The position numbers were made by a program, and so were the translations under genes. 64,000 bases of DNA, taken from NCBI RefSeq assembly GCF_000143415.4, contig NW_003314458.1, positions 8,822-72,821 of the forward strand, read 5' to 3'. This DNA comes from Selaginella moellendorffii (taxonomy: Eukaryota; Plantae; Lycopodiophyta). Numbering within the stretch: position 1 is the first letter of the stretch; each line of letters starts with the position of its first letter. Below are positions 1 through 63,710 of this stretch, in pieces. Under the pieces are notes generated by a model that made no database searches, was not told the DNA's origin, and worked only from the letters and a program-made list of their open reading frames with translations.

Positions 1-1234
1 CGAACCGAAAAGGCAGAAAATGGCGATGGAGGTTTGAATGGTCTCAACAGTTGCTTGTTGCAAGAGGAGGTGCTGTCAACATGCTGATTGGGATGCTATT
101 GAAGAGGAGAGAGCAAGATACAAGATATTGTCCTGGAAGGCAGCTCGCAATTTTGTATATAAAGGCATATTTGAAACGGTTACACTTGGCTTTCTCATGG
201 TTGGGCACACTCATGAAGACGTCGATGCCATGTTCAGTCACCTGGCAGAGTCCCTCCGGCGATCCAATGTCCTCACCCTCCCACAACTCTACGATGAATT
301 CCAAAATTGCATCAAAGGCACTGTTGAAGCTGCACTTCTGACAAAGGTTCCAGACTTTAAGGGGTTTGTAAGAGGCTACATTAGGGACGGATCCGAAACG
401 CTGATTGGCCACTCCAAGCCTCTTCAGTTTCATTTCAGCATGCGTGACAATGCTCCAGTGATGAGGTACAAGATGAGAGAATGGGACACAGTGTGGCTGC
501 CAGTGGACGGCATTGAACTCTTCAAGAGAGATCCCATAACTGGGGAACCTATGATTCCTCAGGGTTCCCCACGGCCGATGCACCCAAATGGACTCAAAGA
601 CCAGGAAAGTATAGTGGCCGGGATTAGACAGCATATTGCCTTCTGGAAGAGGGGGTTGGTGTTTGGTGGAGAATCCTATTTTCAGAGGTGCAAGCCTTTG
701 CTCGAATACTGGGAGAAGATTATATCTACTATCCAAAATGGGCCGGTTGTATATGAAGAATTGGAAGAGTCCTTTTGGCCAGAACCCAGAGCACCAGATA
801 GTAGCGGAACAATGTCCTCTGGAAATGCAGTGATAGATAACGATGTTGAGGATCACTATTGTGGGCCGAGGAACAAGAAGCCGGATTCAGCATTCAATCC
901 AGTACAGGTCTGCAAAGGAATGGTCGTGCTTGTCAGACCCAGTAATAAAAAACAAATGATATGGGTGGGGCGCTGCATCACTGATGCAGAGGAGGACGCG
1001 GAAACTAACTCCTTCAATGTAACTGTGGAGTGGTTCAAGCCAAGTTCCGGATATACGAAGGATTGCCTAGAAAAGAGATGGGTGCTGAATCCAAGGGATC
1101 CCAGCATGAGCATATCGGTGGATAATGTTGTGCATGGTTGGATGCGGAAGCAGAGTGCCACCATCACCTTGCCAGACCATGCAAGAGATGCAGCAAGAGC
1201 ATTCATAACCCGGGTTCAAGGTGAGATTCATTAA
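1..1234 (+). pseudogene. Defective transposase: nonsense codon plus 1215-bp in-frame deletion
   Basis: TGA at 35-37 where the other copy has CGA. The junction AARNFVY|KGIFETV lacks the segment equal to 46181-47395, which carries the first two candidate catalytic Asp motifs. Confidence 0.88.
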
Positions 1235-2432
1235 TATTCCTTTACTAAGTTTCTAATGTATTTTATTTCAAGGTGAACAATCCGAATCTGAATCAGAGGA
1301 GGCATGATGGCATGTGGCCTGAGATGATGTGACATATGCATTTACCAATCACACGTGCATAAATCTAATAATATCGCGTGTGGCCCATATTAATGGCACA
1401 TAAACCCATATTGTGGGCTTACGTGCTTTATGTACCATCATTCCCTTGCAGCGTGTGTGTTGGTTTCCTTTTATAACACAACGAACTCCATATTTTAGGG
1501 TGAAGAGCGTTCTCATGGCAAGCACAAAATCTGTAAGTGAGGCAGAAAAGGAGACGGAGAAGGAGATAGGTGAAGATGTAGAATATATAAGTCTTCCAAA
1601 CTCCCCGTACTATACTCCAAGTGATCATTTTTCTAAACAAACGGCAACATTAACAACTATCGAGAACGCCCCAGTAACGTCAGAGACAACAATCCAAAGC
1701 AAAACAACTGACCTGGAGAAGGATGATAGTACCGCTGAGAGTACCAAAAAGGAGGTGTCCACTAGCGCTTAGGCTTATAATGGCGTGTGCCCTCATGCCA
1801 TTTACTTAATCACCAAATACCTTTTTCCCTTTGCACTAGTATATCTTAATACCGGTCTGAGAAATAGAATGGCATGTGCCCTCAGGCCTTTTACTAAATC
1901 ACCTTTGAAAGAAATGCAAGCCTCTATGTTGTAAAAAAAAGGTACTAGAGAAATTCCTTAATAATATGAATGTTATTTAGTTTCATGAAAATACACTAAG
2001 GGTCAAATGAGTTAAATGACTTCTCCAGACTAGCAATGCCTCTTGCTACACCTTCACAATTAGATTCGTTAGAAAAAGATAACATTGAATAATATCTAAA
2101 TGTTCTCACCATTAAGTGATATGTCTGGCTAATAGGAATGACGTTCATCTTGGAAAGCTCACCACACGCTCAATGAACAAACAAATAGTGTGTGCGCGCA
2201 TGCCATCGCTCTTCTTTAGCTTCAGATTCGGCTTGTTCACCTTGACAATGAGATTTATTATACAACCAGATGGACTCAGTCTGGACATAAAGTCACCACG
2301 CTAGTCACCATGCCCCAGATATGTCTAGCCCCTGGACAAAAAACATATAATTTCACGTCATTTTCAAATACTTGAAAATTTGTACCTAGTCCCATTTTAC
2401 TGAATAAATCCCACTTTAACGAAATAGAGCAT
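1..2432 (+). mobile_element. Partial, internally deleted copy of the TIR DNA transposon (3' part plus TIR), inverted relative to the copy at 43909-55568
   Basis: Near-identical reverse complement of about 43909-47550. Ends in TCCCACTTTAACGAAATAGAGCAT (2409-2432), directly followed by gypsy pol codons (KGKLRKAPVL). Confidence 0.93.
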
Positions 2433-21151: not shown

Positions 21152-21154
21152 AAT

Positions 21155-28520: not shown

Positions 28521-28716
28521 CTTGAAACTTACTCAATATGAAATGGCTCTAGATTGTTAATTTGGGCATGGGATAAAGACCATTGTGTTCAGAATAATCT
28601 CTACATTCCATAGATATGCCAAATTAGTAAATCTAGACACTTTCCATAAATAACAATTGGGATCAAATAGAACTAACACAAAGTACATGATAGTGAGAGT
28701 GTTTGGCAAACACGGT

Positions 28717-34383: not shown

Positions 34384-34602
34384 TGTAATGCACTTTATCT
34401 CTCTCCTCTTAAATCAATTGGAAAAAGGGCAATTGCTTGATAAAATAGCCATTGAAACTTGGGTTTTGCACCACTATCCTTGGACACATGGCATGTGGCA
34501 TGTGGAATGTGACACGTGGTGCATAAAGGGTTTAGGTTCCGCTTCATGGTTATTCTATGGTAAATCACTATAGGATAAAGGGTGAAAACCACATGTGTTA
34601 CA
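34384..34602 (+). mobile_element. 219-bp solo LTR (TRIM-size)
   Basis: TGTAA...TTACA with TSD TGAAT. Confidence 0.85.
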
Positions 34603-35292: not shown

Positions 35293-35444
35293 TGTAGCGC
35301 ATGTGATCATGAGATGAGATTTGGATATATTATCACTGTGGATCCTTAGAACCTTGGGGGATAAAATAACCACTAAGGCCTCTTTCATCAAGCAATTGCC
35401 CTTTTTCTAGTTGACTTAAGGGGAGAGAGATAAGGTGCATTACA
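35293..35444 (-). mobile_element. 152-bp solo LTR (TRIM-size)
   Basis: TGTA...TACA with TSD GTCCC; shares about 60 bp of 5' end with 34384-34602. Confidence 0.85.
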
Positions 35445-36326
35445 GTCCCTGACGACTCTCTTTTCAGTCTCATCTTTGACCCAATCTCAAACTTGCTTTT
35501 GCACTGCCTTTAGTCCAATCTAAGAAAAATTTATGAGAGAGCACGGCAATGACTACTTGAATCAATCAAGATTAATCCCTACAATCTTAATTGATCCACT
35601 TATAATCATTCCTAAGAAGAATCCATTAGTACCATGCTAAACAGCTACGAACTAGCTTATTTGCCACTCTTACCAAACCCAAAAGAGGTTTACTTTTACC
35701 CAAGGTACATGGAACAACTTATGGAACCACCGATAGGCTAACATTAATCTTGCCAACTCAAACGTAATCTCCTCACTCACAAGCCCAAGCGCAACACACG
35801 TTTTGGGCTTTCACCTCAAGCCTCCCTTAGTATCAGAAGTTAGTCTCTAGGACAAACTCAAAACTTACTAAATATGAAATGTCCCTAGATTGTGAATTTG
35901 GACACGGGATGAACACTATTGTGTTCATGACAATCTCTACATTCCATAGATATGCCAAATGAGCAAATCTAGATACTTTCCATAAATAGCATTTGGGAAC
36001 GAAATGAGATTAACACAAAGGGCATGATAATGAGGGTGTTTGGCAAACACAGTAAGCTATCATCCAGCGATATTGAGGGACTAATCCCAATACATGAGGG
36101 TTCTTGTCACGCCAGTGCAAGATGGCTGAATAGACACTTAGGAATTCTGTCCTTATGCTCATTCATCCAAGTATAGATGCAAAGTCCAGTTTACTAATAC
36201 TTGAACAAGAGGGACTGGTAAAGGGTCTAGCAATACTAACCTCCTACCGTCGTGGCAGTAAGGAAAGAATATTCGAAAGGACTAGCCAACAAGTAGCTTT
36301 TGATACCCGAAGTCACATTCATGACA

Positions 36327-40300: not shown

Positions 40301-41542
40301 CTGTTTGACCTTGGAAATAGAAGAAATCCACAAGAAAGTCCCATAGGATTTACTAGGCTAACGTATTTGTATGATAGGGTTTTCAGAAAGATATCTAACT
40401 TTAGGCATCTAGGAAGTCATGTCACTAAATTGAGTGATGGGTAAATAAGAAATCAAAACTCAAATGTTTACAGTCTCTTTTATTTTTTTAAGAATATTCT
40501 TCTCATGTGAGGTTCCTTTACTTTACTTTAATCTAGCCCTTATTTCAAAACATATATTCTTGGTGACAGTTTTCCAGTTTGGCTTTACTTGCTAGAATTA
40601 AGCTTAATAGTTGATAAGCTACCTTAGAAAGGTATTCTTTTTTACTAAAGTGAACCTATGATACAAGGTAAATATATCTCATAAAAGTGTGTTGCTAAAA
40701 GAATGTATTAATTGGAAGAAGGAATCATTGGCACAAGAGGGCATTCTTTTAGATTTGCAACTATTAAAAGTAAAAGGGTGCAGTTCATGGGACAAGTGTT
40801 ACTTCTTAGAGAGGAATGAAACAAATATTTATTTATAAATAATGACTTCCTAATGCATTTTGTGCTCATCACATTCTATCCTACAGCAACATGTGTTTTA
40901 TATAAGTTCAAGTACCAACTTAACCTAGTTGCTAGCACTCTTTGAAGTCAAAGGAATCCCTCCCTTTTGGAATATATATAAAAAAAAAACAGAGTGCCAC
41001 AGAATAGCTCTAGCAATGAAACTCACAACTTCATGGATAATTCTAAAACATGGTATAGGAGATTGTCTTGATATACAAAACTTTTATAGTTCTATGTGAT
41101 AAATTATTTCAATGGCTGATGCAATTGCAAGAAAAACTCGTGAAGAGATAATGTGAAATATAAGGAATTCTTGCTAGTTTGTAGGTGGTCAAATTCTTAT
41201 TGTGAGAATGAAATGGTCAGTTATATGGATCTCCAAGAAGTTTTAATGCCATATCAAACTCTCAAGGGCATTAATGTTTAAGCTAAACACAGTGGACATC
41301 CTTATTTAATACAAATAGTGCACTCAATCTATTTAACTCCTTGATAGTCTACAAGAATAATGACATACATTTATTCAATGACAACTAATGGTGTGTTAAT
41401 TTCTCATACATTCATCTAGCTGAATTCCTCTTGGCTACAGTTCTACAAGACAAAATTTTTATGAATAATAATATTTTAAAAAAATGATAGCTGAATACTT
41501 TTAAGTTTAATCTAAAATGAAAAGATATGTATATGTGTATAG

Positions 41543-42502
41543 CCATTACTATAAAGAATGAAAACTGACCTTACCACATAATGCAACTATAAATGACAAT
41601 ATGTGCTGAGTAATAGAAGATAAACTCAAACTTATACTAACTAAATAACAAGGGATCTTTTGTTATAAAAATGAGTTTGGAAAGAGAACACTAAATGAAT
41701 TGATGCCAATTCTACACCTAAAACGATGGAGAGATCATTAACTTATTCACACAAGGACTCTCCACTACTCATGTGACTCTTTATTCCTGAAGAATCTCTA
41801 TGTCAAAACCTTGCACTACAATAGTATTAACATGATATTATTAATACGAAGACGTTAACCCAGTAAATAGATAGTGCCAATTTAAAAAGCATTGAAAACT
41901 TAGCAAATATCATGGCCACGACCACATCCTCGCCTTTGTCTTTGCAACAGCATCCATCTCCATTAAAACAAGAGCATCTCCTATAGGAAGTAGAGTTGAA
42001 GCATGTACAACTTTAAGTGGGAGAGGTGATGTCTCATAGTATTGTACTAGGTAAAGAGCATTGTCAAGAGTAGCTGGGGCAAGTGCATGCATAAGTTTCA
42101 TAAAATCTTGATGAAGTATTAAGCACAACATTCCCAACTTGATTCACTATAAGATATTGACTTTACATATTAGGGAGAAAGCTTTAATTTACATAAGTGG
42201 TTATCCTCAAACCATTATACCATTACAATGCCATCCTTTGAGACATGTGGGAAACTCATATTAATGCCGGGCATCATCAATCACCATGAAGTGATCAAAC
42301 CAATTGTATGTATCATCCTTAAGATTCCCACCGAAGAAATTTGGCCAGATGTAAGAATTGGCATTAAAAGCAAGAGAAGTTGCACCATACACCATGAATA
42401 TTACCATCAATTAAGTTTAATTATTCAATTGCAACTCTATAACATCAAACAATTGCATCAATTGCTATTCTATTATAACATTACACTTTTAGTAGCAATG
42501 AG
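41543..42502. repeat. About 1-kb unit repeated at 43251-43908 plus 55573-55875; shows the empty site of the TIR transposon
   Basis: Colinear similarity; GATATTGACTTTACATATTAGGGAGAAAGC versus AATATTAGCTCTA|CATGTTATGGAGAAAGC. Confidence 0.85.
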
Positions 42503-43251: not shown

Positions 43252-44568
43252 CCATTACTATAGAGAATGAAAACTGATTTTACCACATGATGCATAAATG
43301 ACAATATATATTGAGTAATAGAAGATAAACTCAAAGTTATATCAACTAAATAACAAGGGACCTCTTGTTATAAAAATGAGTTTGGAAAAAAAACACTTGA
43401 TGAACTGATGCCAAGTGAATTGTACTCCTAAAAGGATGGAAAAGTCATTGACTTATTCACACAAGGACTCTCTACTACTTATATAACTCCTTGTTCTTGA
43501 AAAATCTCTATATCAAAACTTTCCACTATAATAGTATTAACATGATGTTGTTAATACCAAGACCTTAACCTAGTAAATGGATAGTGTTAATTCAGAAAAC
43601 ATTAAAAACTTTAATATATCTGGCCAACCTCATCACACACTTAGTAGTAAATATCACGGCCACGACCACATCCTCGCCTTGTCTTTGCAACAGCGTTCAT
43701 CTCCATTGAAACAAGAGCATCTCCTATGGGAAGTAAAGCTGAAGCATGTACAACTATAAATGGGAGAGGTGATGTCTCATAGTATTTTGTTAAGTAAAAA
43801 ACATCATCAAGGGTAGCTGGGGCAAGTGTATGCATAAGTCTCATAAAATTTTGACAAAGTACTAAACACAATATTTCCAACTTGATCTACTCTGAAATAT
43901 TAGCTCTAATGCTCTATTTCGTTAAAGTGGGATTTATTCAGTAAAATGGGACTAGGTACAAATTTTCAAGTATTTGAAAATGACGTGAAATTATATGTTT
44001 TTTGTCCAGAGGCTAGACATATCTGGGGCATGGTGACTAGCGCGGTGACTTTATGTCCAGACTGAGTCCATCTGGTTGTATAATAAATCTCATTGTCAAG
44101 GTGAACAAGCCGAATCTGAAGCTAAAGAAGAGCAATGGCATGCGCGCACACACTATTTGTTTGTTCATTGAGCGTGTGGTGAGCTTTCCAAGATGAACGT
44201 CATTCCTATTAGCCAGACATATCACTTAATGGTGAGAACATTTAGATATTATTCAATGTTATCTTTTTCTAACGAATCTAATTGTGAAGGTGTAGCAAGA
44301 GGCATTGCTAGTCTGGAGAAGTCATTTAACTCATTTGACCCTTAGTGTATTTTCATGAAACTAAATAACATTCATATTATTAAGGAATTTCTCTAGTACC
44401 TTTTTGTTATGACATAGAGGCTTGTATTTCTTTCAAAGGTGATTTAGTAAAAGGCTTGAGGGCACATGCCATTCTATTTCTCAGACCGGTATTAAGATAT
44501 ACTAGTGCAAAGGGAAAAAGGTATTTGGTGATTAAGTAAATGGCATGAGGGCACACGCCATTATAAGC

Positions 44569-44843
44569 CTAAGCGCTAGTGGACACCTCCTTTTTGGTAC
44601 TCTCAGCGGTACTATCATCCTTCTCCGGGTCAGTTGTTTTGCTTTGGATTGTTGTCTCTGACGTTACTGGGGCGTTCTCGATAGTTGTTAATGTTGCCGT
44701 TTGTTCAGAAAAATGATCACCTGGAGTATAGTACGGGGAGTTTGGAAGACTTATATATTCTACATCTTCACCTATCTCCTTCTCCGTCTCCTTTTCTGCC
44801 TCACTTACAGATTTTGTGCTTGCCATGAGAACGCTCTTCACCC
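44569..44843 (-). CDS. Possible additional 3' exon of the transposase gene (acidic, Thr-rich tail)
   Basis: Open in both copies (1499-1772 on +), preceded by TTTTAG; a donor CAAG|GTGAGA lies just before the transposase stop. Confidence 0.35.
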
Positions 44844-45106
44844 TAAAATATGGAGTTCGTTGTGTTATAAAAGGAAACCAACACACACGCTGCAAGGGAA
44901 TGATGGTACATAAAGCACGTAAGCCCACAATATGGGTTTATGTGCCATTAATATGGGCCACACGCCATATTATTAGATTTATGCACGTGTGATTGGTAAA
45001 TGCATATGTCACATCATCTCAGGCCACATGCCATCACGCCTCCTCTGATTCAGATTTGGATTGTTCACCTTGAAATAAAATACATTAGAAACTTAGTAAA
45101 GGAATA

Positions 45107-48100
45107 TTAATGAATCTCACCTTGAACCCGGGTTATGAATGCTCTTGCTGCATCTCTTGCATGGTCTGGCAAGGTGATGGTGGCACTCTGCTTCCGCATC
45201 CAACCATGCACAACATTATCCACCGATATGCTCATGCTGGGATCCCTTGGATTCAGCACCCATCTCTTTTCTAGGCAATCCTTCGTATATCCGGAACTTG
45301 GCTTGAACCACTCCACAGTTACATTGAAGGAGTTAGTTTCCGCGTCCTCCTCTGCATCAGTGATGCAGCGCCCCACCCATATCATTTGTTTTTTATTACT
45401 GGGTCTGACAAGCACGACCATTCCTTTGCAGACCTGTACTGGATTGAATGCTGAATCCGGCTTCTTGTTCCTCGGCCCACAATAGTGATCCTCAACATCG
45501 TTATCTGTCACTGCATTTCTAGAGGACATTGTTCCGCTACTATCTGGTGCTCTGGGTTCTGGCCAAAAGGACTCTTCCAATTCTTCATATACAACCGGCC
45601 CATTTTGGATAGTAGATATAATCTTCTCCCAGTATTCGAGTAAAGGCTTGCACCTCTGAAAATAGGATTCTCCACCAAACACCAACCCCCTCTTCCAGAA
45701 GGCAATATGCTGTCTAATCCCGGCCACTATACTTTCCTGGTCTTTGAGTCCATCCGGGTGCATCGGCCGTGGGGAACCCTGAGGAATCATAGGTTCCCCA
45801 GTTATGGGATCTCTCTTGAAGAGTTCAATGCCGTCCACTGGCAGCCACACTGTGTCCCATTCTCTCATCTTGTACCTCATCACTGGAGCATCGTCACGCA
45901 TGCTGAAATGAAACTGAAGAGGCTTGGAGTGGCCAATCAGCGTTTCGGATCCGTCCCTGATGTAGCCTCTTACAAACCCCTTAAAGTCTGGAACCTCTGT
46001 CAGAAGTGCAGCTTCAACAGTGCCTTTGATGCAATTTTGGAATTCATTGTAGAGTTGTGGGAGGGTGAGGACATTGGATCGCCGGAGGGACTCTGCCAGG
46101 TGACTGAACATGGCATCGACGTCTTCATGAGTGTGCCCAACCATGAGAAAGCCAAGTGTAACCGTTTCAAATATGCCTTTGGCAACAAGCATCCCCAAGT
46201 ACGTGAAGACGTACATGTTTTTGTTCTCACTGCCAGCATTGTCTGTTTGGAGCAGAAGATGGGGTGGAAGGCCACATTGGCCGCAAGAACTTCCTTGAGA
46301 TTCTGCTTCGTTTGGATGAGGCTGTGCATTCACCGGGCGACCAGCCTCGTCGGAATGGCATGAGGCCTCACGTGATAACCCTACAATCTGACGGCCAACA
46401 TATTCACTGGGATGGCATGGGGCCCCACGTGATACTGCAAGCCTTTGCTCCTCCTCCAGCTGAACCCTGTATGGGGTTCGATCGACAAGGGCCTTATGCA
46501 AGGGTTGGCCGTTCAGCTCAGTCTGCGCACTTTGCAGAGACCTTAAGTGTTTTGCTAGGGACGCAATCATCATGTTTGCACCCCCGCCACCCCATAGAGG
46601 TACAAAGAAGTTCCCATAGTTCTGGGCACCATGCCCATGAGCGATTATGCCAAACAGAGACACAGGCAGCTGCATGGATGAAGAGATTGCCTTGGGAGCA
46701 GGATTGAGTCGAGGTAAGCACGTCTTTTTCTGGTCCATTTTGTCGTGGATGATGCAGAGGTAAGAGTCAGGTCTCTCCATGGAAAGAATCCTGTTATGAT
46801 AATATGCAGTCCTGCAGCTTCTCTGCTCGATGTTGTGGTCGAGCCGCCTTCTAACCAGCGTCTCTCGCTCTTGAGTGCTGCAAGAATTCTTCGACAAAGC
46901 CATTTTGATAGCAGTGCACTCGTCACACTTTGAAAAGCTGGAGTACTTTCCTATACTCACATCCCTGAACCTGTTGCTCCACAATCTACTAAATCTAGAT
47001 TGGCTCAGCTTCTTGTAGCCATTACTCTGGAGTTCCCGATTCACATCTTCCAATATAGCCCCCTTGGTATACATGGAAGGGAGAACTCGTTGGGTGTCTC
47101 GTGTTCCATCTTCCAAGAGGCGGGTTTTATGTGGTTGCTGCTCGCTACATGTCTCGACAAACCTCTTGAAGATTGCCTCTCCATATACAACATGACCCCT
47201 GGTTTTGTGCATACCGTCGTTCCCATGGACTGCCTGTTGAACCCTTTGTTCCTCGAACTCAGTTTTGATTCTGTAGAATGTGGTTCGAGGGACTCCATAA
47301 ATGATTCTCCATGCCTTCATGCAGACCAAACCCCTCTGGAAGACCATGCCCCCCACCTGATGTTCTGAAGCATCAACAGATGATCGTAATGCCTCATACA
47401 CAAAATTGCGAGCTGCCTTCCAGGACAATGTCTTGTATCTTGCTCTCTCCTCTTCAATAGCATCCCAATTAGCATGTTGACAGCACCTCCTCTTGCAACA
47501 AGTAACTGTCGAGACCATTCGAACCTCCATCGCCATTTTCTGCCTTTTCGGTTCATTGCTCAGATCCCTTTGGCTGCGCTTTAGGAAGGTGTACTTTCTT
47601 TTCCCATGAAGAGATGTTCTGTCATCAGTTGTAGTGGTGTTTGATTGTGAATCCTTCACATTCTCAAACACTAAGTGCCTCAATTTCCACCGCACAATGC
47701 TTCCAATAGTCAGACTGTTTTCTTCTGTATCAACAACCTCTAAAATCGCAACTCCAATATCATCCCAGCCCAATTCTTGATTAGCAACTGCATCTCTTGG
47801 ATCGACAACTGTGGCTAAGCCCTCAGCTACCACCTCCCCCTCGGGGTTGTTTAGAAACACCTTCGCCTGAATCCATGTAGCACGGTTCTTAAGATCCACG
47901 GAGGGAACATGCGTCGCACTTGCGCTGTCCCCAACATCTGCTTTCTTCTGAAGATTTTTCAAGGCAACAACAACATTTACCCCGACGACCATCTCTCCTC
48001 GTTCAATAGCGACCACATTCCCATCGAAGACAGTCTCTACTGATACAGCAGCATTGCCTTCCCCAAGCCTTTGACAGTGTATAACAAAGTTCCGATCCAT

Positions 48101-48199
48101 AGACACAAGGGTCCCTTTTGCAACTCTCTTCCCACCATACCTTTTCCCCAACCCTGAAAGCCATTCTGAAAGTGTAGAAAAGAAGTTAAGACCATACAA
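45107..48199 (-). CDS. DDD/E transposase, Sola-like (about 1030 aa; true termini probably spliced)
   Basis: IIHDKMDQKKTCLP, LLLQTDNAGSENKN, FLMVGHTHEDVDAMFS, SKCDEC; uninterrupted 3.1-kb ORF between TIRs. Superfamily inferred from motif style and the 4-bp TSD. Confidence 0.85.
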   Translation of the reverse strand: MYGLNFFSTLSEWLSGLGKRYGGKRVAKGTLVSMDRNFVIHCQRLGEGNAAVSVETVFDGNVVAIERGEMVVGVNVVVALKNLQKKADVGDSASATHVPSVDLKNRATWIQAKVFLNNPEGEVVAEGLATVVDPRDAVANQELGWDDIGVAILEVVDTEENSLTIGSIVRWKLRHLVFENVKDSQSNTTTTDDRTSLHGKRKYTFLKRSQRDLSNEPKRQKMAMEVRMVSTVTCCKRRCCQHANWDAIEEERARYKTLSWKAARNFVYEALRSSVDASEHQVGGMVFQRGLVCMKAWRIIYGVPRTTFYRIKTEFEEQRVQQAVHGNDGMHKTRGHVVYGEAIFKRFVETCSEQQPHKTRLLEDGTRDTQRVLPSMYTKGAILEDVNRELQSNGYKKLSQSRFSRLWSNRFRDVSIGKYSSFSKCDECTAIKMALSKNSCSTQERETLVRRRLDHNIEQRSCRTAYYHNRILSMERPDSYLCIIHDKMDQKKTCLPRLNPAPKAISSSMQLPVSLFGIIAHGHGAQNYGNFFVPLWGGGGANMMIASLAKHLRSLQSAQTELNGQPLHKALVDRTPYRVQLEEEQRLAVSRGAPCHPSEYVGRQIVGLSREASCHSDEAGRPVNAQPHPNEAESQGSSCGQCGLPPHLLLQTDNAGSENKNMYVFTYLGMLVAKGIFETVTLGFLMVGHTHEDVDAMFSHLAESLRRSNVLTLPQLYNEFQNCIKGTVEAALLTEVPDFKGFVRGYIRDGSETLIGHSKPLQFHFSMRDDAPVMRYKMREWDTVWLPVDGIELFKRDPITGEPMIPQGSPRPMHPDGLKDQESIVAGIRQHIAFWKRGLVFGGESYFQRCKPLLEYWEKIISTIQNGPVVYEELEESFWPEPRAPDSSGTMSSRNAVTDNDVEDHYCGPRNKKPDSAFNPVQVCKGMVVLVRPSNKKQMIWVGRCITDAEEDAETNSFNVTVEWFKPSSGYTKDCLEKRWVLNPRDPSMSISVDNVVHGWMRKQSATITLPDHARDAARAFITRVQGEIH

Positions 48200-48950
48200 A
48201 AAATGATTGGAGAATGGCCTAAATCATAACATACCAAACAACCTCAATAGCATGAGGCCACATGCCATTATTCAAACATGCTATTGACACCCACGTGAAA
48301 TTTTGCATTCACAAAATTGGCATGAGCCCTCATGCCATCTTGATATACACACAGCTGCAGGCAAGTAAAAACATACATGACAATACGCTAGCCATGAAAT
48401 TGCAAGGGCCCAAGATGGCATGTGGCCTCATGCCATTTCTAAATGTGGTCCTAAGCCATTCCATGGTGAACATACCAGGAAGCACAAGTGCCGAATATCA
48501 AGAGGAAGCGGTAGCCACACCAAAGATAGTGCCGCTCGCAACACCGCAACTACTTGTAGCGCCGCTCGCAACACCGCAACTGCTCGTAGCGCCGCTCGCA
48601 CAAACTGCCACTCGCATAAACTGCCGCCCGCAATGGTGCTCGCAATGCCACAACCGCTCGTAGATGCATAAACCACAGCCCACATCACCGCTTACACAAG
48701 CAGCGCTCACTGCGCTCAGCGGAACCAAGAACACGGCGCACAAAAATGATAGACCTAGGAATGAGTTCGAGAATTCAAAAATAACACACGCTTGAATGTC
48801 ACATCAAATCCTCTGACAAACCAGATCTTATGACTCCTCTGACAAATTTCAAACTGAGTAGCTTCTAGACTTTGCTGTCGGAGGTTGAACTTTGTCACAT
48901 CATGTCCTTGCCTCGATCCAGCTATGCCATGTCAGTGATTCGAACTTTGC

Positions 48951-50350
48951 CATGCCATGTCAGCAATCCGCGCCAAGATTATTCGCCGTGTAAAGGAATA
49001 ATTATGCTCTGTGTGTACGTCCATTTATGGCAATATAAGGCCACACGCCATTCAAAAAATAATGCTAGTCGAGCATTTTTTGGTGCATTTTTGGGTTCAA
49101 AATTGCATGAGCCCACACGCTATAAAGTTTACCTGTACCAAAAATAGAAACAGCTTTATTTACTTGGGAATTTAAGTGGTTGAGGCATTTTTAAACTTAC
49201 AAACACATGCCCTACTTACATTCCTTTGGTTGCTTAAAATTCAAAAATATTATAAACCTTTCTTTTTGCATTTTCAATGTTTTCAATTATGGTTTTTGAT
49301 TTTCGCAGGACCAGCCTAGTAATCTATTTGCATCCCGTCATGTTTATAGCTAGCTTTCGTTTGTCCCCTTCGCTAGCCTGAGATACATCTGCTCGGCATC
49401 TGCCTCTTACAGCATTTGCCCAGAAAGGGCATCTTTCTTCACGCAGCATTTGCCACATGTTTAGGGTTTAGGGTTTAGCAATTCAGTAGCTTGATAAAAA
49501 TGCAAATACAGAACTTGATGCAAAATCCTTTGATATGTCACAATGCCCCTAGGACCATAAACACATTTCAATAGAGAGGGTCCTTTCATTTCATAACTCC
49601 TTACGTAGATCTTGGTGAAACCAGAGTTAGTGAAGTTAGTTTCTTGTGATCCCGCATCTGATTGTGATGTCCCTTTGCAGTGTCGATGGAAAGGTCAATG
49701 CACACCAAACTGTAAAATCTTGGAGCAAAATAACGGTCGGATCTATAGCAAATGCCCCTAAAACATTGTAAGGCTCGTGTGGTCTCATGTGGTGTCCGAT
49801 CGAGATGCTTCTTTGCAGGGTCATCAAGAAAGACATTGTATACCATTCTGTAAAATCTAGTTGCGATCTAATGGTTGAATCTCCAGAAAACTCAAAACAA
49901 TCTCGCGCGTGTCAGAATATCCTAGGAATATACTCCTATGTGCCCCTGAAAATGGCATGCGGCCCCACGCCATTCAAGAGATAACGCCAGATGACGCCGA
50001 GAATTTTTTGGTGCATTTTTTGGGTTCAAAATTGCATGAGCCCACACGCTATAAAGTTTATCTTTGCCAAATAGAGAAAAGTTTATTTGTGTCATGTGAG
50101 GTAGTTACAGTCCTTTGTGCTCGGCATCTGCCTCTTGCAGCATTTGCACTGAAAGGGAATTTTTCTCCATTCAGCATTTGGCCCTGAAAATGGCATGCGC
50201 CCACACGCCATTCAAGGAATAACGCCATAGAACGCCTGGATTTTTGGATTTAAAATGTTTAGGGTTTTTTGGGTTTTTTCAAAATATTTTGGGTCCAACG
50301 TTTTTTGGGTTTCTTTGGTTCAAAATTGCATGAGCCCACATGCTATAATA
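48951..50350. promoter_or_regulatory. Divergent intergenic region with three approximately 100-160-bp repeats, each with two palindrome copies, and telo-box-like TTTAGGG
   Basis: Repeats at about 49027-49130, 49951-50060 and 50189-50350; TTTAGGGTTTAGGGTTTAG at 49460-49478. Confidence 0.55.
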
Positions 50351-51061
50351 TTGATTTGAGAGAAAAATAGAAACAGATAGAATTTCTTTATTTAGCTGAA
50401 CATCTGCCATTTTTGGAAATACAAGATGCTTTGGAATATCCAATCATGCATGGTATAAATATAGCGAGGGTATTAAATGATATCCCAATCATGATCTTTC
50501 TTTTGGATTTCGCGTGCATGCAGTTCGAGGAATGATGACGTTGTGGATTTCTTTTGGATTTTGCGTGCTTGCATGCCCGCGGCAATCCAGAAATTAATGG
50601 TGGCGCCCAAGTCCGAGGAATGATGACGTGGCGGGATTACCAACCGTTGTGACATTTCGCGCGTGTGAGGTTAGGTTTTGCATTTTGCTTCGTACTCGCA
50701 CTCGCGCTCGCATCACACTCACGCTCCCGCTCGCATCGCGCTCCCACTCGCGATCACGCTCACTTCTCTACAGGTTTCTCGTGTGCATCGGCGTCCACTC
50801 GCACTTGCATCACACTCGCGCTCGCATCGCGCTCGTGTGCATCGGCGTCCACTTCAAGACACACCCAGTTTGTAACTTCGCCACCAACTCCGCCGCCCAC
50901 TCCGCCACCCACACGCAGCCCACTTGGCGTCTCGGGAGATTTCAGTGCCACTCTCCAACTGTAAGTGGCAGAGTAGCCTTGCTGCTACGATCCACTGCAC
51001 ACACTGTGCACATTCGCCAGCGAGTCCGGCCTCGATTGTCACGGCCTCCATTCGGCTTCAA

Positions 51062-54000
51062 ATGGTAAGTCTTTTAGGCCAAGTAGAAAATGGCATGAGG
51101 CCACATGCCATTCAGTAGCAACATTGGCATGCACCGATTGCGCTCTCGAGTGCAGTCCAGTTATAGATGGCGTGTAGCCTCATGCCATCTTAGGATGCAG
51201 CCTCAAGACATCTAATGCAGTGGTGAATGGCGTGTGGCCTCACGTTATTTCCAGCTGCTAGCTTTTCATCTGTCAGCTCTAATTGTTGTGCATTTCTGAA
51301 CAGGCGAGGAATTGCGTTCTTCTTCCAGCCACTGTCAATGTGGATGCAGAGAAGGGGGAGGAGCTCACCAGTTAGACTTTCGGGATGGAAGGCAAGGATC
51401 TGATGCTGTACAACACAGATGGTGGGAGAAAAGAATGCATGGGGATCCTCATCCAAGTGACAGACACTCCATGCAGTTCCATGCAAGAATATGGACTGGC
51501 ACTTGTGGTAGAGACAGCGTCCGCCTTCAAGATCCACCTTGCACATCCTAGCGGCTTCCCGGAGGGGGGCAGCGGCTATGAGGAATTCCTAGAGGGAGCT
51601 AGGGAGAGGTTGTCCAGGAGGCCCACAATTTCAAAGACGCTGCGGGTCTATGAAGATCACATGGAATCCACGGACCTCACCTACGGCGATGTTCAAAAAC
51701 TATATTCCAACATTGAGCCGTTGAGAGTGCCTCCAGTTCGCGAAGCGAAGGGGAAGGGGGTCGATCTGGAAACTACCCCGAAGCAGAAAAGGGTGGTCAA
51801 GCTCAAGCCGACATCCGACTCTGCTGCTCCAAAAAAGAAGCTACTCGGTGATGCCATTGCCTCGGGTTCGAACACTACACCCACCAAAAAGAAGAGCCGC
51901 AAAAAGCAGAAAGAGCAAGAAGAGGCAGCAAAAATCGTCGTAGATAATAGTACTTGTTACTATTCCAACAAAGTATATACAATCGACGTGACCCGTATCG
52001 ACATCCAAAGCAAATACAACCACAGGCTAGTATCTGATGAGTGGGTGGAGAAACTGAAGCAGAAGATGCTGGCAAGTCCAGTAACACCCGACATCGCAGA
52101 CGTGATCCCCTACTACCAAACAATGAAGGGCGAGACGAGGTTTCCAAACTTGATCAATAGGAAGGTGTTGGATGATCAGAACATCCGGTTCTATGCCGTC
52201 TCCGGGCAGCATTCTAGCTTGGCGATGCAAGAGATAGTTCTGGATATTATGGTGGGCGAGGAGGTGAAGAAAGTCTTCAAGACAAGAGTTGTTCGCCTGA
52301 TAAAAGGCAACTCGCCCCTCCGATCTATCATATCCATCTCCCACGCGCAGAATGTCAAGCAAGAAACGTGCTACAAATCGGGTTTGCACGAGACATTGGC
52401 ACGAACACGGAAGCTCTGGGTTCAACTGAAGAAGCCACAAAAACCAGGACAAGGACGTGCACTAGCAACTAGCGCCTGGCAGGTAAGCCTCGTTGCATGT
52501 GGCATAGCATGTGGCCTCACGCCATTTCCATTGCAGGAATTCTCGAGTCTTCTCTCGAAAACACTGGGGGTCAATGACACACTCAGCATCCATAACATTC
52601 TACTCGCGACAAAAGTTGTTTTTGACAAATGGGTAGATGTGCTGAGGAGGTACCATGACGGGGAGTTGCTAAACTCAATGGGTGTGGAGGACGGCCGGAA
52701 GCCTAATGATTTGAAGCTCAACGCCTTGCGTTTCTCGCGGTCTCTAGACGACGACGACCTTCTGACAGTGGCTAATGGTGAGGTAGTCTTCAACAAGACC
52801 AAAATGACTCCCGGCCATATTGTGACATACGAGGACTTGTGCACGACTCTGAGAGCTCGTGCGCTATTGAAGGATTGGATCTTCGAGCAAGGGGCCATGG
52901 AGAGGGTGAGCATCGACACCACGCAAGAGATGATGGAAGAGCTGGACTTGTCAAATGAAGACATCGACGAGTACGTGAAGGGGGCCCCCATGTTCATCGA
53001 TCTGCTGCGGGATGCCACGAAAAGTAAAGCTGAGAAGTTGGATCAGTATCCAAATTTCATTAAGAGGGATGTTGACCGCCGGCTTCAGAAATAGCTCGAC
53101 CCCGCAGCAGAGGCCTATCGAGAACCTTACCGGGTATACGTGAATTCGGATGAGGATCAAAGGTGGAGGAGCATCGTTTCCCGCGGAGATGAGCAGGTCA
53201 AGAACATCTTTTGTGTGATGGACTTCACAAACGAGGAGATCACTCATGCAGACGAAGTCAGCTCCATCATTGACTTAATGGTGGGACTTGCGGAGGTGGA
53301 ATCTTCAGTCCACTATATGATCTACGACTCCAAATCCTATCACAAGTTCTGGAAGGCCTTGAACGAGGTGAAGGCTCGGTTGAAAGGCAAGGAGATGCGG
53401 GAGATCCATGGGATAATGGCTAAGAAGAAGATACCGACGAATGTCCGCATCTTCACACTCGCCCTTGTTATTGGTCCTGCAGCAGAGTGGGACTGGAGTG
53501 ACTTCCTAGCTTAGTTCAACAAGGCCGATCGAATTGATCTGAGGGAGGTCAATTTACCCGTGCCTGAGGAACTGAAGATGGCTATGGAGCTTTCGAATCC
53601 AAAGAAAGCTCCAGGTGCAGCATGGGAAATGCTTAGCTGGGTCTTCAATGCAATAGCGGGTGACTCCAAGGGCAAATGCGTTGTCGAGTACAATTGCGGC
53701 AGACTATTCTTTCGAGCTGCACTACTCAAGGGTGTCCTGTGTGTTGCGGTGACAAACTCCATTGAAGAGGTGACTTCAATGGAGCATATAATTACAGTTG
53801 CCAAAGAAAAACAGTATCTTCTCTACGAACCTGGTAAGTACGCACTTTAAGTTTAAATGTTATCTCACAAGCTCTGTATGCAGGAGCGTGGCCACCCCCA
53901 GATGCTGAAACGGCGTTAACAGCTACTGATGTTAGGCTGAGCTCACTACCTGCACAAGGTAAGGTCACGTGAGGCCTCACGCCATTTTGATTATAGATCG

Positions 54001-54897
54001 TTGTGAATATTCAGACACGAGGACTGAAAAGCGCACTGGTGGCGCGTCGAAGAAGGACAAACAGACAAGCAATAGGAAAAAAGGAGGTACAAATTATATT
54101 TGCAATGGCGTGTGGTCTCATGCCATTCCTTGCAGGAGACACTTCTTCAAAGGCAAAACAGGCAAGCACCAGTCAAGCTCAAACTGACAGTGGTCATAAA
54201 AAGCGAAAGCACGTTGGACAGTCGTCGGGATCAGAGGCGTTTGATTCGAAAAGGAAGAAGGGCAACGAAAAGATGATATAGGTAATGCCTCGCGGTTATG
54301 GCGTGTGTGCTCATGCCATTCATTGCAGATCAAGGGCTGAGTGAAAGGAGCCAGTCACCACCTCCTGACTCAGATTCCTATGGCAAACTCCCCTTCCCCA
54401 ATCTCAATGGAGAGGTACAATGGATGAGGGATGCTTTTCAAGTCAGGGCCACGTTTTTCTCATCTCGTCATCTTCGAAGGGTGCAAGAACGTGCAGAAAC
54501 CATGTTAAGACAGTCGGGTGAGGATAGGTCCTAGGTCAAGCACTGAAACAGGCTATGGATGTCTTGTATTTTGAGATGGAGACTCGGCCAGATGATTTTC
54601 CCAAGATGGTCCCTCCTCTTCTTCGTCCTCCTCTTCTTTGTCCTCCTCTTCGTCCTTCTGCTCTTCCTGCCCATTATCTTTCTCTGGCTCCTCATCCCCC
54701 TCCTGCATTTCTTCCATAGGCTGCTCAGGCTGCACCTCTACGGATGCAGGAGGACGAAGAAGAGGAGGACGAAGAGGACTTGGATGGTCCTCACAATGGT
54801 GACGATCACAATAACAACGATGATGATGATGACGACAATGGCCAGCCTGAGGTGGCCAAAGAGCAGCGGAGGAAGGTCATACAAGACAAACCATCAG
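51062..54897 (+). pseudogene. Second transposon gene: ParB/Srx-like domain, degenerate N6/N4-methyltransferase-like fold, Pro-rich and acidic tail; several TAG stops in this copy
   Basis: ATG|GTAAGT at 51062; one frame from 51304 to 53833 broken only by TAG at 51373, 53092 and 53512; GT-AG introns at 51065-51303, 52483-52536, 53834-53883, 53959-54014, 54087-54135 and 54282-54328; motifs HR..., FYAVSGQHS, SHAQN, CVMDFTN, NPKKAP, VVEYNCG...AALLKG. Confidence 0.7.
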
Positions 54898-57515
54898 GTA
54901 AATAATAGTACATCCATTCCTAACCTTTTACCATTTCTAACATTGTCCATGTAGGTCGCAGAAGAAATGGTAAGTAGAGATTATTCAGTTGAATTAAGAT
55001 ACAAACTCTAGCCTTTAGTGTCGAGGAAGGATAGTGCCAAGCAAGGGTTTAAATCCTGATAGTGTGGAGAGTGATGAAATTCCAAGATTATTGTATAGGC
55101 GTTGGAGGCAAAAAATAACAGTCTGAGATGGCATGTATTTATTTAAAAATGTAACTTATTATGGCATGGGGTTCCATGCCATTGTATTAATATTAAAAGA
55201 CAATTCTTTGAGAGGATTTGCATTATACTAGAAGTGTTACAGCATGTTATTGGAAGTCTACGAAGTTGTTTTATTAATAAGGGGAAAGTAAAGATTGAAT
55301 GGGGACTTGGGCTCCACCTAGACTCGGAGCAACTGAGCCAATATTAAAAGGATGGAAAGAAATTGGACGACGATGACAAGGAGAAGAGAGAGGTGAAGCA
55401 GTGGCAGGGGGAGGAGAAGTGATTGAGTAGACATTTCCTTGTTTAAAATAAAATGGCATGTGCCTCAATGCAGTTGAATTTTGTTATATTTATATACTAT
55501 ATAAAGGTTTGGAAACCTTATTTTACAAGTGGGATAATGACAATTCCCACTTTAACGAAATAGAGCTTTCTACATGTTATGGAGAAAGCTCCAATTCACA
55601 TGAGTGGTTGCACGCAAACCATTGTACCATTACAATGCCATCCTTTGAGACATGTGGGAAACTCATATCAATGCCAGGCATTATCAATCACCATAAAGTG
55701 ATCAAACCAATTATATGCATCATCCTCAAGATTCCCATTGAAGAATTTAGCCGAACGTGAGGATTGGCATCAAAGGCAAAAGAAGTTGCACCATACACCA
55801 TGAATATTACCATCAACTAAGTTTCATTATTCAATTGCAACCATATAATATCAAGCAATTGTATCAATTATTATTCTAGAGTCAAAAGAGGAAGATGCTT
55901 CTGCAAAGGAGGAGTATTCTATTCTGCCATAAAGATGAATGAAAATAAGAAAAACAAAAGAGAAGAAATGGAAAAACTACAAGAATAAGAGAGATCTAGA
56001 CAATGCAAAAACTACACAAGTTTAAGCACTTCTCAAGGAGAACAAAAATTACTTTTCACCTCCACCAATGGAATATAGAAGTGTATTCAATTAGCCCAAA
56101 AACTAGTTTATATACAGAAGTGAGTGGTCTGGATTAAAACTAATTCAATAGTTACTATGCTAATAATAGTAAACAACATCATATCCATAAAACAACAATA
56201 ATCCTTTGTAAATATTTCTAAATCTTATAAATTTATTAAGAAAAGAATAAAGATTTTATTTATCAATTAATCAAAGCACTCCTAAAAGATGTCAATCTCA
56301 ACCTTTAATAAAAGGTCTTCAATCTTTTTACTTTAATTTCTTCGAGACTGTTTGGAGGATAAAGATAAATAAGTAATCCCTAAATAAAACTTTTTCTATG
56401 CTTAATTTTATTAAAAGGCATTAAATCTGTTTTTAACACAATAACTCTTCAAATTCATGAAGTTAAATGCTCTTGATGTAGCTTGGAAATGGGACAATCC
56501 ATGCCATTAGAATCCCTCATGGCATTATTTTTCCATAATAGCCATGTTAATCATTGCAAACATGTGCTCTGAGAGAAAGCTTTTCATACAGCTATAACCT
56601 AGTGGCTAATCCAAAAGGAAACACATGGTTCTCAAAAGCATTTCTGAGATCTTTTTCTTTTTATTAATGAAAATAAACCTAGTGTTTATTTAAACTACTC
56701 AAATAGGGAGAGAATTCCACTTTGACACTGATTACTTTTAGCTCAAGTATATATAAATTTCTTTCTGCCATTGTTGGAGAAAAAATGTGTGTGTGTGTGT
56801 GTGTATGCTCAAGACAACCTTACAAGTGAATGGTAAATTAAGATATTGATAGTTTTCTCAATTTCTTATTACAAAACGAGTATTTGCCCAGCAAATGCTA
56901 TGGTGCTGCTCATGCACTGCGAGCAAGCAAAGCAGCCATGGAGCCCTAGGAGTGCATGGTGCAACACCTGTCACTACACCCTTGGCTGCCACAACATTGA
57001 GCCGATATTCGCACTAACCATGGCCACCAACCTTGGCCCTAGCCTAGGGTGGCCTCCCCTTCCTGAGAACCATGGCTTCAAAGGCTGCCTTGGGACCGGG
57101 ACCAGATGGCTGCAAGGTCTGGGCCCTTTGTTCTTATTATTATAGATGTTATTTCTAGATTGGCCACAAAGTACCCTTTACTATATATAAGTCCAACATA
57201 TACATACACAACCAAAGTTGCACAAGTAACCAACCAATAACAGAAACTTATTATTTCCCATATATGACTATTCTTTGCTGTAATCTAATGGTTCATATTC
57301 ACCCTATAACTTGCTTTTAAAAAATGAATCCATTATTGTGTTTATAACTAATGTTTCATCTTTGATCCATAACAATTTGTTGCTACAAATTATTAAACAT
57401 TTCTTAGATCCAACATATATTCTCTCTAATGCCATTCAGTGTCCCCACAAGTTTGTTCATGAATGTAATAAAAATTGTAGCTTAAGTAATTTATTATGCT
57501 TTGGTGTACTATCTC

Positions 57516-61115: not shown

Positions 61116-61936
61116 GCTATATTTAAAAGACCAAGTAATTATGGAATAACGCCTTAAGAAGGGAAGGCAAAATTTCCACCAACGAACACAACCACTGGAG
61201 GAAAAATGCCCGTGCCCTGTCCAAAAGGAGACTTGGACAACACCACAAAGTCAGCAAACTTTCCTGGCGTCAGCGACCCAACCAAATCCTCCAATGCAGC
61301 TGCATACACAGCCGAGGATGTGTACCTGTGAATCCAAAAACAAAAACTGCATTTCAGTTTCTCATCTGTTATCTCTTACCCTGCCACTACGTCCCATGCA
61401 GAAATCCTTTCCTCGGGATGACTCCAGCCTGAAGTGTTCTCTCCATGGCTGTGCGGATTCCTCCAAGTGGATTCACTGCTACCACCTTGAGACAAACCAT
61501 TCATGTAACGCATGTATTTGGCCAATCAGATCCTAGAGCAACCACACTACCGTTTCCGAGGAGGGAAATCATTGCACTTCACCAGTTTATACCCCTCTTT
61601 GTGGCAAGCCTGTAGCTTTTGCATTATAGAAGTGTAAAGTAGGGACCATGTATTAGCACCCACTCTGCAAAAGAGAGTCGATTAGGAAGGATTCTAGCAG
61701 TGTATCACCTTTTCACGTCCGTGTTCACAGAAGATTATAAAGAAGGTAAACTAACAAAAAAAAGCACATTACTAAAAAACAATCTTTTGTATTGTGTAGA
61801 CAAAGAAGAAACAACTGATAATCCAGAAGAACAAAAAAAAGGTGAGGCTGTGTAATAAAGACTTTGTGAAACTTTAATAATTATAGGAAGAGCAGGTATG
61901 GATATCCATGGTTTCTTTGAACTCCTCTTTGCTCGG

Positions 61937-63205
61937 TTAGCTTTTACTACGGCCTTTTGGACGTGCTGTGGTTTCCTCCTGTGATGCTTTCCTTCCTGGC
62001 ATTAGAGAGTAACTGAGGATGTAAGATTGCACTGCCTGAGCAAAGCCAGGCTTGTACGAGAAGAGCAGCCCACGGAAGAGCTTCCCATCGATGGAGGCTT
62101 CTAGCGTGTATCTGTAGTTGAATACGTCGCTTACTTTAGCCTCGAACATCTTCTCGCCTAGCGGCTGAACGTGAGCTTGAAACTCTGTAGCATGAGTTTG
62201 ACAGAGAAAATTTGGAGAGGTCCAAGGTTTTCTGCAGATACCTCCGTGAGATGAAACCAAGCTCTTGTCCGCATCCCGTTGCTTGTCTAGCACAAATGGC
62301 GTGGCACAATACTCTTGCCGCCTTCTCTTAAGTTCCTTACGCATGGGTAGCTTTGGTTCTGATGGATCTTTCTCCCTCAGCATCTTTTCACAGAAAAACG
62401 GCAACCATATTGTCAGCAGCAATGTCAATAAAAGAAGAAGCCAACCTGTGTCGAGGAAATACATGTCATCCAGAGCTTCAAACTCTTCGTTACATCCCCC
62501 ATAGAAGAATAATATGCCTCGCCCTGCGTTCACCAGCTCTTGGCATCAGCTCGGCACTAGTCGTCTTTACCTCCCGCCATGCCATTGTTTCTGGAAACAC
62601 AAATGAATTCGCAAGTTTAAAACCAGCACAATGTATGTACCTGTGTCCAGAATATGAATGTCGTATAGATAGGCATTACCACCGTTCTTGCCACCCATGA
62701 CAATGCAACAGTTCTTATTATGGATATCCCGAGGAATAGGTGAGACTCCAGTGGTAGAAATCTTCTTCCAGAAAAAAGTATCTACAGGAAAAAAAAGAGT
62801 TTAGAAGAAAACCAGGAAAGATAACAGGATATTACTCATGTTCAAAACATGGAGGTCGTTGTAGTACTCCTCCTCTGAGGGATCGCTGGATTTCCCACAT
62901 CCCCCAAACACTAACAGGTTGTCACCGATGAGAGATGTGCTATGTCCTTCTCTCGGAGCAGGAACATCACCAAAAACGTCGGGTTTCCCCCAGGTGTTGG
63001 TAGCTGCATTGGATGATAAGAACAAGAAAAAAAATTTGATAGAACTCGCTTACCAGTATCCAAAACAAAGAGATCATCTAGCGGGCTGGTTCCATCGGTA
63101 CCACCAAACACATAGAGCTTAGACCCGACGGCCGTGGGGCTGTGGCTGTCCCGAGGAGAAGGGTGCGTTCCTTTCATCACAGGCTTGCTCCAGATGTACG
63201 TCCCT
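61937..63205 (-). pseudogene. Kelch-repeat protein, multi-exon, apparently truncated and internally deleted
   Basis: PSPRDSHS...LYVFGG, PAPREGHS...LLVFGG, IVMGG, FFYGG repeats separated by approximately 50-bp introns; C-terminal FEAKVSDVFNYRYTLEASIDGKLFRGLLF; only about 4-5 partial blades. Confidence 0.75.
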
Positions 63206-63658
63206 GCACGATCCCAGCAAAACATGATCAAAACCATATTTCCAGTTGAATAGCGAAGAGCAAGAGAGTGAAAAACCTTGATTCTAGTCGTGGTTCCAGC
63301 CTCGAGAACCTGGAACAAACAGGGACTTGAGAGACTCGAAAAAAGAATGGCAACGAGCAAGAGAGTGAAGAACCTTGATTCTAGTCATCGATGACAACGT
63401 GAATCCCCTCATTTTCCGAGACGTCATCCCTGTCGTGCGCTCCATCAGAGCCTCTTCGCCTTTCACTCCCAATCCTCGTCGCATTTCCGAGCAGAGCACG
63501 TCGATCTACCAAATGCACCTGCGCAGGCGGATGCTGGCGGATTTGTTCCCCACGTAAGTCTGGAAGGCGTTGAGCCTGTTCTCGCTGATCATCGAGCACA
63601 ACTATGGCGACACAGAGAAAGCCGTGAGCCTCTCAAACCTTTGCAAACAGAGAAACAA

Positions 63659-63664
<6 letters not shown>

Positions 63665-63710
<46 letters not shown>
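63665..63710. repeat. (AG)n microsatellite
   Basis: Direct. Confidence 0.95.

Follow-up and report, generated by a model that had tools for sequence, protein, structure and literature searches.

Why would a plant DNA transposon carry 22 copies of one 24-bp palindrome, and carry so many of them in its predicted introns and so few in its codons? The element in question lies at 43909..55568 of a 64,000-nucleotide stretch of Selaginella moellendorffii (contig NW_003314458.1 of assembly GCF_000143415.4, positions 8,822 to 72,821 of the forward strand; hereafter the window). It bears two genes arranged head to head: gene 1 (45034..48164, minus strand), encoding a DUF7869 DDE transposase, and gene 2 (51062..54969, plus strand), encoding a putative ParB-like protein with a methyltransferase-like region. 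We suggest, at a probability of roughly one half, that the palindromes are family-specific DNA operators for the element's own gene-2 protein.

A palindrome confined, within the window, to one transposon family

A first-pass annotation had described a palindrome, AATGGCRTG-N6-CAYGCCATT, dispersed through the element and concentrated in its introns, and this description is borne out. The exact pattern occurs six times across the window against 0.00 expected (100 shuffles), and a symmetric weight matrix recovers 22 sites inside the element, between 44134 and 55452, 10 of them in predicted introns. The enrichment proposed as a check, computed here for the window only, is 22 sites against none: the matrix finds no site in the 49,908 bases that belong to neither copy of the element (null mean 0.03, with a maximum of one site in 100 Markov shuffles). 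The short predicted introns of a kelch-repeat-like host gene in the window (~61.9-63.7 kb) hold no palindrome; viral contigs gave no match to the dyad, and 80 related transposase loci yielded three single near-matches only.

All 22 full sites depart from the pattern at four positions or fewer, and 20 of these at three or fewer. The annotation had listed 24 starts in the element, of which 22 stand as full sites and two, 45012 and 49029, are half-sites with seven mismatches each, like a third at 1306 in the second copy; three of its starts were off by one and should read 44134, 50030 and 50324. The second copy itself (1..2432), internally deleted, in opposite orientation and 99% identical, has full sites at 1779, 1868 and 2184, the last of which had been overlooked, while the listed 1307 is the half-site only.

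The six-letter spacer had been described as varying, but it is constrained: its position 2 is G in 21/22 sites and its position 5 is C in 20/22, so that the dyad symmetry reaches into what would be the loop of a hairpin, at positions unable to pair within that loop. At the R/Y positions of the arms the plus-strand pairs are A-C (9), A-T (7), G-T (3) and G-C (2), and the variable ones are CpG alternating with its deamination products, TpG/CpA; position 51183 is T in the window copy and C in most other copies among the sample contigs. The flanks, described as mostly unrelated, are so in 15/22 copies; the other seven have flanks in common as a result of three local duplications (44450/44539; 49951/50189; 49101/50030/50324). 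None of the 22 copies falls within an array reported by TRF.

Placement in predicted introns and outside conserved codons

Predicted introns hold 10/22 sites where 1.3 would be expected (p 2e-7), coding sequence holds two where 12.6 would be expected (p 3e-6), and the remaining ten, in neither, compare with 8.0 expected; the gene-1 bounds used for this count were off by at most eight bases, which moved no site. The trios noted at the 5' end of each gene both fall within long 5' introns: at 48246, 48316 and 48414 in the predicted intron of the gene-1 5' untranslated region (48166..48475, minus strand), and at 51089, 51166 and 51226 in predicted intron A of gene 2, which directly follows the ATG (51065..51303; this and all further gene-2 introns are on the plus strand). 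Contigs from a run labelled 'RNA?' span intron A unspliced and list no joint, and are uninformative on splicing.

The short introns of gene 2 are B (52483..52536, 54 nt, palindrome at 52503) and, all predicted, C (53834..53883, 50 nt, no palindrome), D (53959..54014, 56 nt, palindrome at 53963), E (54087..54135, 49 nt, palindrome at 54104), F (54282..54328, 47 nt, palindrome at 54297) and G (54898..54954, 57 nt, no palindrome). The earlier statement that four of five introns of 47-56 bp carry one copy is thus right as worded, and counting intron G makes it four of six. Intron B is old, because an 18-residue gap falls exactly there against the annotated S. moellendorffii protein XP_024528744.1 and nine homolog frames stop at about its position. 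One open frame persists when introns C, D and E are removed, an alternative acceptor of intron D at 53996 being likewise in frame; around intron F the frame is broken in the window copy, and indels near 54276 and 54526 differ among copies. An introner-type origin was considered and is ruled out, as intron B is old and the motif-bearing introns have no shared flanks.

Both coding palindromes (46354..46434) fall in an insert of the transposase that varies freely among homologs and is not conserved (columns 700-830 of alignment A1), which supports the proposal that the sites are placed where coding allows. The ten sites elsewhere comprise three downstream of gene 1 (44134..44562; 44134, 44450 and 44539), five in the intergenic region (49029..50347; 49101, 49951, 50030, 50189 and 50324, together with the half-site at 49029) and two near the right end (55160..55475; 55160 and 55452). 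The half-site at 45012-45035 overlaps the gene 1 stop codon. We also observe an inverted duplication (44081-44142 against 45027-45087, 77% over 62 bp), through which the gene-1 end and its site recur in mirror image close to the element's left end.

Gene 2 and its predicted fold

Gene 2 is laid out as a ParB/Srx-fold domain (~51950-52370), a helical region, the methyltransferase-like region (~53190-53800) and a low-complexity tail, and the window copy is interrupted by TAG stops at 51373, 53092 and 53512. Profile searches of Pfam, NCBIfam and PDB gave it no name above cut-off, and a word-index search with its 572-aa frame found no match; a full HMMER search returned 17 hits, 15 of them plausible, with named homologs in Selaginella moellendorffii, Riccia sorocarpa and Calypogeia fissa. 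Among the 17, the representatives P0063 and P0070 are unrelated repeats, yet are present in alignment A3, which lies behind the first structural model.

On the predicted structures, gene 2 has a ParB/Srx fold. Model 1, with pLDDT 84-96 across most of residues 180-330, finds as its best Foldseek match Noc on its DNA site (E 9.4e-5), followed by ParB, Srx and KorB, and VIA gives Z scores of 9.8 for PadC (root-mean-square deviation, rmsd, 3.1 over 98 aligned), 9.2 for KorB and 8.7 for ParB-N; a second model has the same ParB-like matches. KorB aligns with residues 199-429 at rmsd 13.8 in model 1 and with 25-157 only in model 2. The junction after the ParB domain is modelled at pLDDT 46-59, and an in-frame intron falls there too. 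Among Atlas neighbours of the ParB region are DUF3723 and ParB_N, a hint that DUF3723, which we take to be a Starship gene, is itself ParB-like; fungal DUF3723 clusters are among the top neighbours of window 51934-52482 (0.95) and of a related locus (L051:6817-7749; 0.96). In the literature covered, we found no paper combining DUF3723 with ParB.

Related elements pair other dyads with the same gene

A metagenome scan for transposase loci, of which 80 of 261 were kept, places a gene-2 homolog beside the transposase in 11/80, and in ten of these 11 it is upstream and divergent within one contig orientation, as in the window. Terminal inverted repeats (TIRs) bound two of the loci, L039 (26 bp) and L053 (33 bp); no target duplication was seen around L053. 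The related gene 2 ends in a beta-class methyltransferase, DIPYG ... QKP ... DLFSG, with motif IV before motif I. One exon matches PF01555 (L039-L077; 32.8 bits against a cut-off of 26.7) and a PHROG methyltransferase as well, and DIPYG, whose DIPY is a variant of DPPY, is present in 8/8 loci that cover it. Judged by its motifs, the enzyme of the relatives is intact-looking.

The window gene is another matter. Toward its C terminus it is similar to an N4/N6 methyltransferase around the motif I end, with a weak hhalign match of the motif I region to the relatives' exon (P 0.0005, probability 31%), and hhalign gave no alignment between its C-terminal half and the DIPY exon. It has no PF01555 match and no motif IV (D/S)PP(Y/F), the likely position reading DFTN by eye; by eye, too, PPY is unrecognisable in the Selaginella and Riccia homologs, the latter of which match PF01555 weakly (E 0.004). 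Structure searches found no methyltransferase fold, that part of the model having pLDDT <55. The methyltransferase domain of the window gene 2 is probably degenerate and inactive.

In 10/11 of the loci with a gene-2 homolog a different dyad, in one to 15 copies, occupies the inferred first intron of gene 2, like the trio at 51089. The core is TCGAT or CCGAT ... ATCGA or ATCGG, and the dyads follow a TATA box, a short first exon and GT, and precede exon 2 (introns placed by eye); L076 begins too late to show the first-intron dyad, and L053 and L066 have one copy each. Spacings are 31-33, 40-43, 50-54, 62-64 and 72 bp, and 102/108 lie within 2.1 bp of a multiple of 10.3, where 41% would be expected, indicating helical phasing.

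Other lineages carry dyads of their own. L011 carries an unrelated dyad six times (twice in coding sequence, once in an intron, once at the stop codon and twice downstream), its dyad-bearing intron being 125 nt long and supported by homology, and its stop-codon dyad resembling the arrangement at the window's gene-1 stop. L012 has ten copies of yet another, one within a short intron-like stretch, and L001 has 7-10 upstream of an acceptor. Overall, 26/80 loci have at least three copies of their own dyad against 0/240 shuffles; many of the other 54 are short or decayed. The transposase tree that relates these loci came from a quick, incomplete search with several short rows and is a sketch only.

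Three side observations concern the same loci. The L011 intron (2017-2141) cuts a part of the transposase where the window copy and the aligned homologs have no intron, and is a possible intron gain. Just past the first GT of gene 2, close to the start of inferred first introns that otherwise cannot be aligned, seven loci conserve a non-palindromic word, CTGTACGGACA (L039, L042, L045, L049, L051, L075, L077). A 16-bp perfect palindrome, CCTAGTGG-CCACTAGG, or near variants of it, recurs in decayed transposase loci (L022, L023, L026, L043, L044, L054, L065, L068).

A self-marking model and its rivals

We consider it likely that the dyad is a protein site on DNA, because it is family-specific, conserved in sequence, symmetric, phased in one lineage and kept outside conserved codons. 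The first-pass annotation had proposed selected sites for a dimeric protein, and that proposal is strengthened by the lack of covariation (below), the symmetric spacer, the like placement of the relatives' dyads, the one-lineage phasing and a candidate binder encoded by the element. Gene 2 is the likeliest binder because members of its fold bind dispersed palindromes. We posit that its protein, a predicted dimer, would bind the dyad and so mark the copies of this transposon as self; it would load there and may spread along the element like ParB, KorB and VirB, and loading would counter host silencing or set the transcription of the element, as VANC and TnpA do. By analogy with VANC, TnpA and VirB, the likely purpose would be to keep cognate copies expressed despite host silencing. 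Where relatives have an intact-looking enzyme, that fused methyltransferase would write N6-methyladenine (6mA) or N4-methylcytosine (4mC) near the arrays, and the window family, its enzyme domain probably inactive, would be a reader without writing activity. The dyad itself would presumably survive methylation and deamination, since its R/Y positions alternate between CpG and TpG/CpA.

Several observations weigh against this account. A helix-turn-helix behind the ParB domain is at best putative: model 2 matched ParB proteins over residues 16-164 only, and a profile search against PDB found no match. At the nucleotide motif the window clade has GQHS and the L051 clade GSHS, without the GxxR arginine that we take to bind the nucleotide in ParB; with that arginine absent and the helix-turn-helix putative, gene 2 is to be called ParB-like and not an established CTPase clamp. 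The window sites are not helically phased. The phased arrays belong to one lineage (gene-2 exon 51-73% identical to L051) and, being tandem repeat units of that lineage, represent few independent phasing events, about five size classes. In the same lineage the arms change together between families (A-T 82, G-C 33, mixed 11), a pattern that suits a homodimer shifting its specificity, though an RNA stem or template switching would account for it too. Finally, six long, decayed loci (L014, L015, L040, L048, L050 and L054) have three or four dyads and no detectable gene 2, and L001, L011 and L012 are too short to show one.

The best-surviving rival, which we hold to be somewhat unlikely, keeps the dyads as DNA sites and changes the binder, to the transposase, which would then enhance transposition or its own transcription from internal sites, or to a host transcription factor. 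The DNA-level evidence fits it equally, the six dyad-bearing loci without detectable gene 2 speak for it, and the AtMu1 transposase alone activates cognate copies sequence-specifically in the passages available of a 2026 preprint (10.64898/2026.08.24.746577). For the transposase, however, the TIRs lack the dyad and carry a different motif of their own, the nearest dyads being 225 and 93 bp inside; for a host factor, the dyad differs by lineage, unlike a fixed host site; and the densest arrays are in the first intron of gene 2. Short words GTGGGA/TCCCAC, repeated within and beside both TIRs (43916-43950, 55528-55560), are candidate transposase sites distinct from the internal dyad.

A second rival, quite improbable in our view, is that the palindrome acts as a pre-mRNA hairpin masking the branch point along with the 3' splice site, throttling the splicing of both genes, or that it feeds small RNAs. 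A hairpin regulating splicing had been offered as the alternative by the annotation, which proposed covariation as the test, and no covariation emerged: among the 22 window copies the score is 0.122 against 0.139 shuffled, 415/500 shuffles scoring as high, a test of low power because the copies are similar, and compensatory changes number one against 29 one-sided. The idea is thereby weakened, but it has gained support of another kind. In introns B, E and F the sole or best branch-like CTCAY comes from the right arm of the palindrome, its A lying at -18, -16 and -16, in line with the branch A of the motif-free introns C (-17) and G (-15), and introns E and F can fold over the acceptor (-14.5 and -16.2 kcal/mol). 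Sense-strand mismatches in the 12 transcribed copies are G-U more often than A-C (11 against 6, with 8 others), and the relatives' arms covary between families. Against this, 10/22 copies lie outside introns and coding sequence, of which five fold more weakly on the plus strand (-1.8 to -6.9 kcal/mol), pairing between the flanks in B, E and F stays within the range of shuffles (p 0.085, 0.24 and 0.165), and the relatives show G-U 28 against A-C 26, centres of 0-3 nt and both orientations.

The least probable reading sees the dyads as a neutral outcome of template switching and local duplication, surviving solely where the coding sequence can bear them. It can draw on the seven copies from three local duplications, on the tandem arrays of the relatives and on a tandem duplication elsewhere in the window that also gives a four-copy palindrome, but it meets 15/22 copies with unrelated flanks and none in a TRF array, single copies in four separate introns of 47-56 nt, one of them old, and unrelated dyads at comparable places in three or more other lineages.

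The element and its surroundings

The element is a full-length DNA transposon of 11,660 bp by its TIRs, its flanks and an empty-site joint. Its TIRs (left 43909..43932, plus strand, ~24 bp and without a palindrome copy; right 55545..55568, minus strand) are enclosed by a 4-bp target-site duplication, TCTA (left 43905..43908, plus strand; right 55569-55572). Contigs from X1 and X2, two runs of one sample, connect 43904 to 55569 with four shared letters, a joint that corroborates both the ends and the duplication. The host repeat that received the insertion has a paralog at 41525-42472 that lacks the element and likewise displays the empty site. Summed contig depth in run X1 is ~700,000 over the element against 113-276 in the listed flank contigs; such a sum is no copy number, and it suggests a very abundant family. 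The window copy is mutated, with stops and frameshifts. A>G and T>C make up most differences of the contig reads from it, from which we infer that it has undergone the C>T and G>A transitions that methylation would bring about.

Gene 1, with a predicted ATG at 48164, matches PF25273 (DUF7869; E 1.4e-41), a family we equate with the Sola1-type transposase. Its 14 homologs have the conserved blocks HDKMD, DN..ENKN and GHTHED in common, and its predicted last intron (45069-45120, minus strand) is without the motif. Transposase type, ~24-bp TIRs and 4-bp duplication are the testable Sola1 features, and the element has all of them, the definition by TIRs and a 4-bp target-site duplication being the one we presume for the group. 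Sola1 DNA transposons were reportedly described by Bao et al. in 2009; a second gene and internal dyads are not known to belong to the definition of the group.

The second copy continues past the start of the window, and its other end abuts a reverse-transcriptase RNase H region. Beside such sequence, five repeats of ~3.2-4.7 kb at 4950-22700, each with a GC-rich tandem array of 6/12/23/35-bp units and several frames open, are probably tandem parts of a long-terminal-repeat retrotransposon. At 24200-36000 there is an inverted duplication, old and several kb in size, with 74-85% identity, and a host gene with kelch-like repeats (named by eye) and short introns lies at 61900-63700 on the minus strand.

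Relation to known systems and implications

The closest parallel in layout is VANDAL/VANC. In the passages available of Hosaka et al. (2017; PMC5735166), VANC is an anti-silencing protein with family-specific motifs, for which demethylation is demonstrated. As far as those passages go, the likeness extends to an accessory protein encoded by the element, to short motifs in intronic, intergenic and terminal non-coding regions, to motifs that differ by family and to arrays that expand through tandem repeats, like those of the related loci. By the same passages, VANDALs are MuDR elements with non-palindromic words of 8-9 bp, whereas the dyads here are of 24 bp and mostly dispersed singly; and here the element is of the DUF7869 kind, its protein has a predicted ParB fold fused to a methyltransferase-like region, and Pfam gives no MuDR or VANC match. 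The element is VANDAL/VANC-like in layout and not a member. Spm TnpA and the AtMu1 transposase are likewise sequence-specific regulators whose clustered cognate motifs co-diversify with families and guide activation, according to the portions available of 10.64898/2026.08.24.746577; in those portions the motifs are at termini and the proteins transposase-derived, in contrast to the internal sites and the candidate binder of prokaryotic-type fold seen here.

With ParB/parS systems (Noc-NBS, KorB, PadC, VirB) the element has in common the predicted ParB/Srx fold and many dispersed palindromic sites, and it differs in that its gene is eukaryotic, intron-containing and methyltransferase-fused, lacks the GxxR arginine and sits in a cut-and-paste transposon. 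Shigella VirB, as its available passages have it, is a ParB relative turned anti-silencer without ParA (PMC10653881). In the accessible parts of Iyer et al. (2016; PMC4738411) we find phage ParB-Tls methylase loci, ParB-HTH fusions in chlorophytes and chytrids, and inactive methyltransferases in DIRS1; the shared elements are ParB-associated N6/N4 methyltransferases of prokaryotic origin in eukaryotes and, in the relatives here, the beta-class motif order, and those parts name no Sola-borne land-plant fusion. Marchantia DN4MT1 differs, being a host gene with TSPPY where our relatives have DIPY, in what is available of 10.1101/2021.02.12.428880. A Physcomitrella Sola1 is listed in the available part of PMC9033089. 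The present element is like Sola1 in its DDE transposase type, TIRs and 4-bp target duplication, and in the literature covered, which leaves out Repbase Reports, subscription journals and supplements, we found no account of intronic dyads in a Sola element, or of one that bears a ParB-methyltransferase gene.

A broader hypothesis, which we regard as doubtful, is that a widespread class of transposons of seed-free land plants captured a prokaryotic ParB-methyltransferase module and built from it a eukaryotic, parS/ParB-like form of self-marking through intronic dyads. In its boldest version the protein would load at family-specific dyads and slide from there over the element, and an intact enzyme would place 6mA or 4mC on the element's own copies and thereby evade silencing by 5-methylcytosine, some lineages being readers only. 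If gene 2 binds the dyad, parts of bacterial partition and methylase systems would supply matched proteins and sites of 18-24 bp that differ by family, with regulatory sites fitted into predicted introns of 47-56 nt through overlap with the branch point. It would also open to study the loading and spreading of ParB-type proteins on eukaryotic chromatin, transposons that write 6mA or 4mC, and the origin of plant amino-methyltransferases. And on the same condition plants would harbour a second, independently built solution to the problem of transposon self-recognition.

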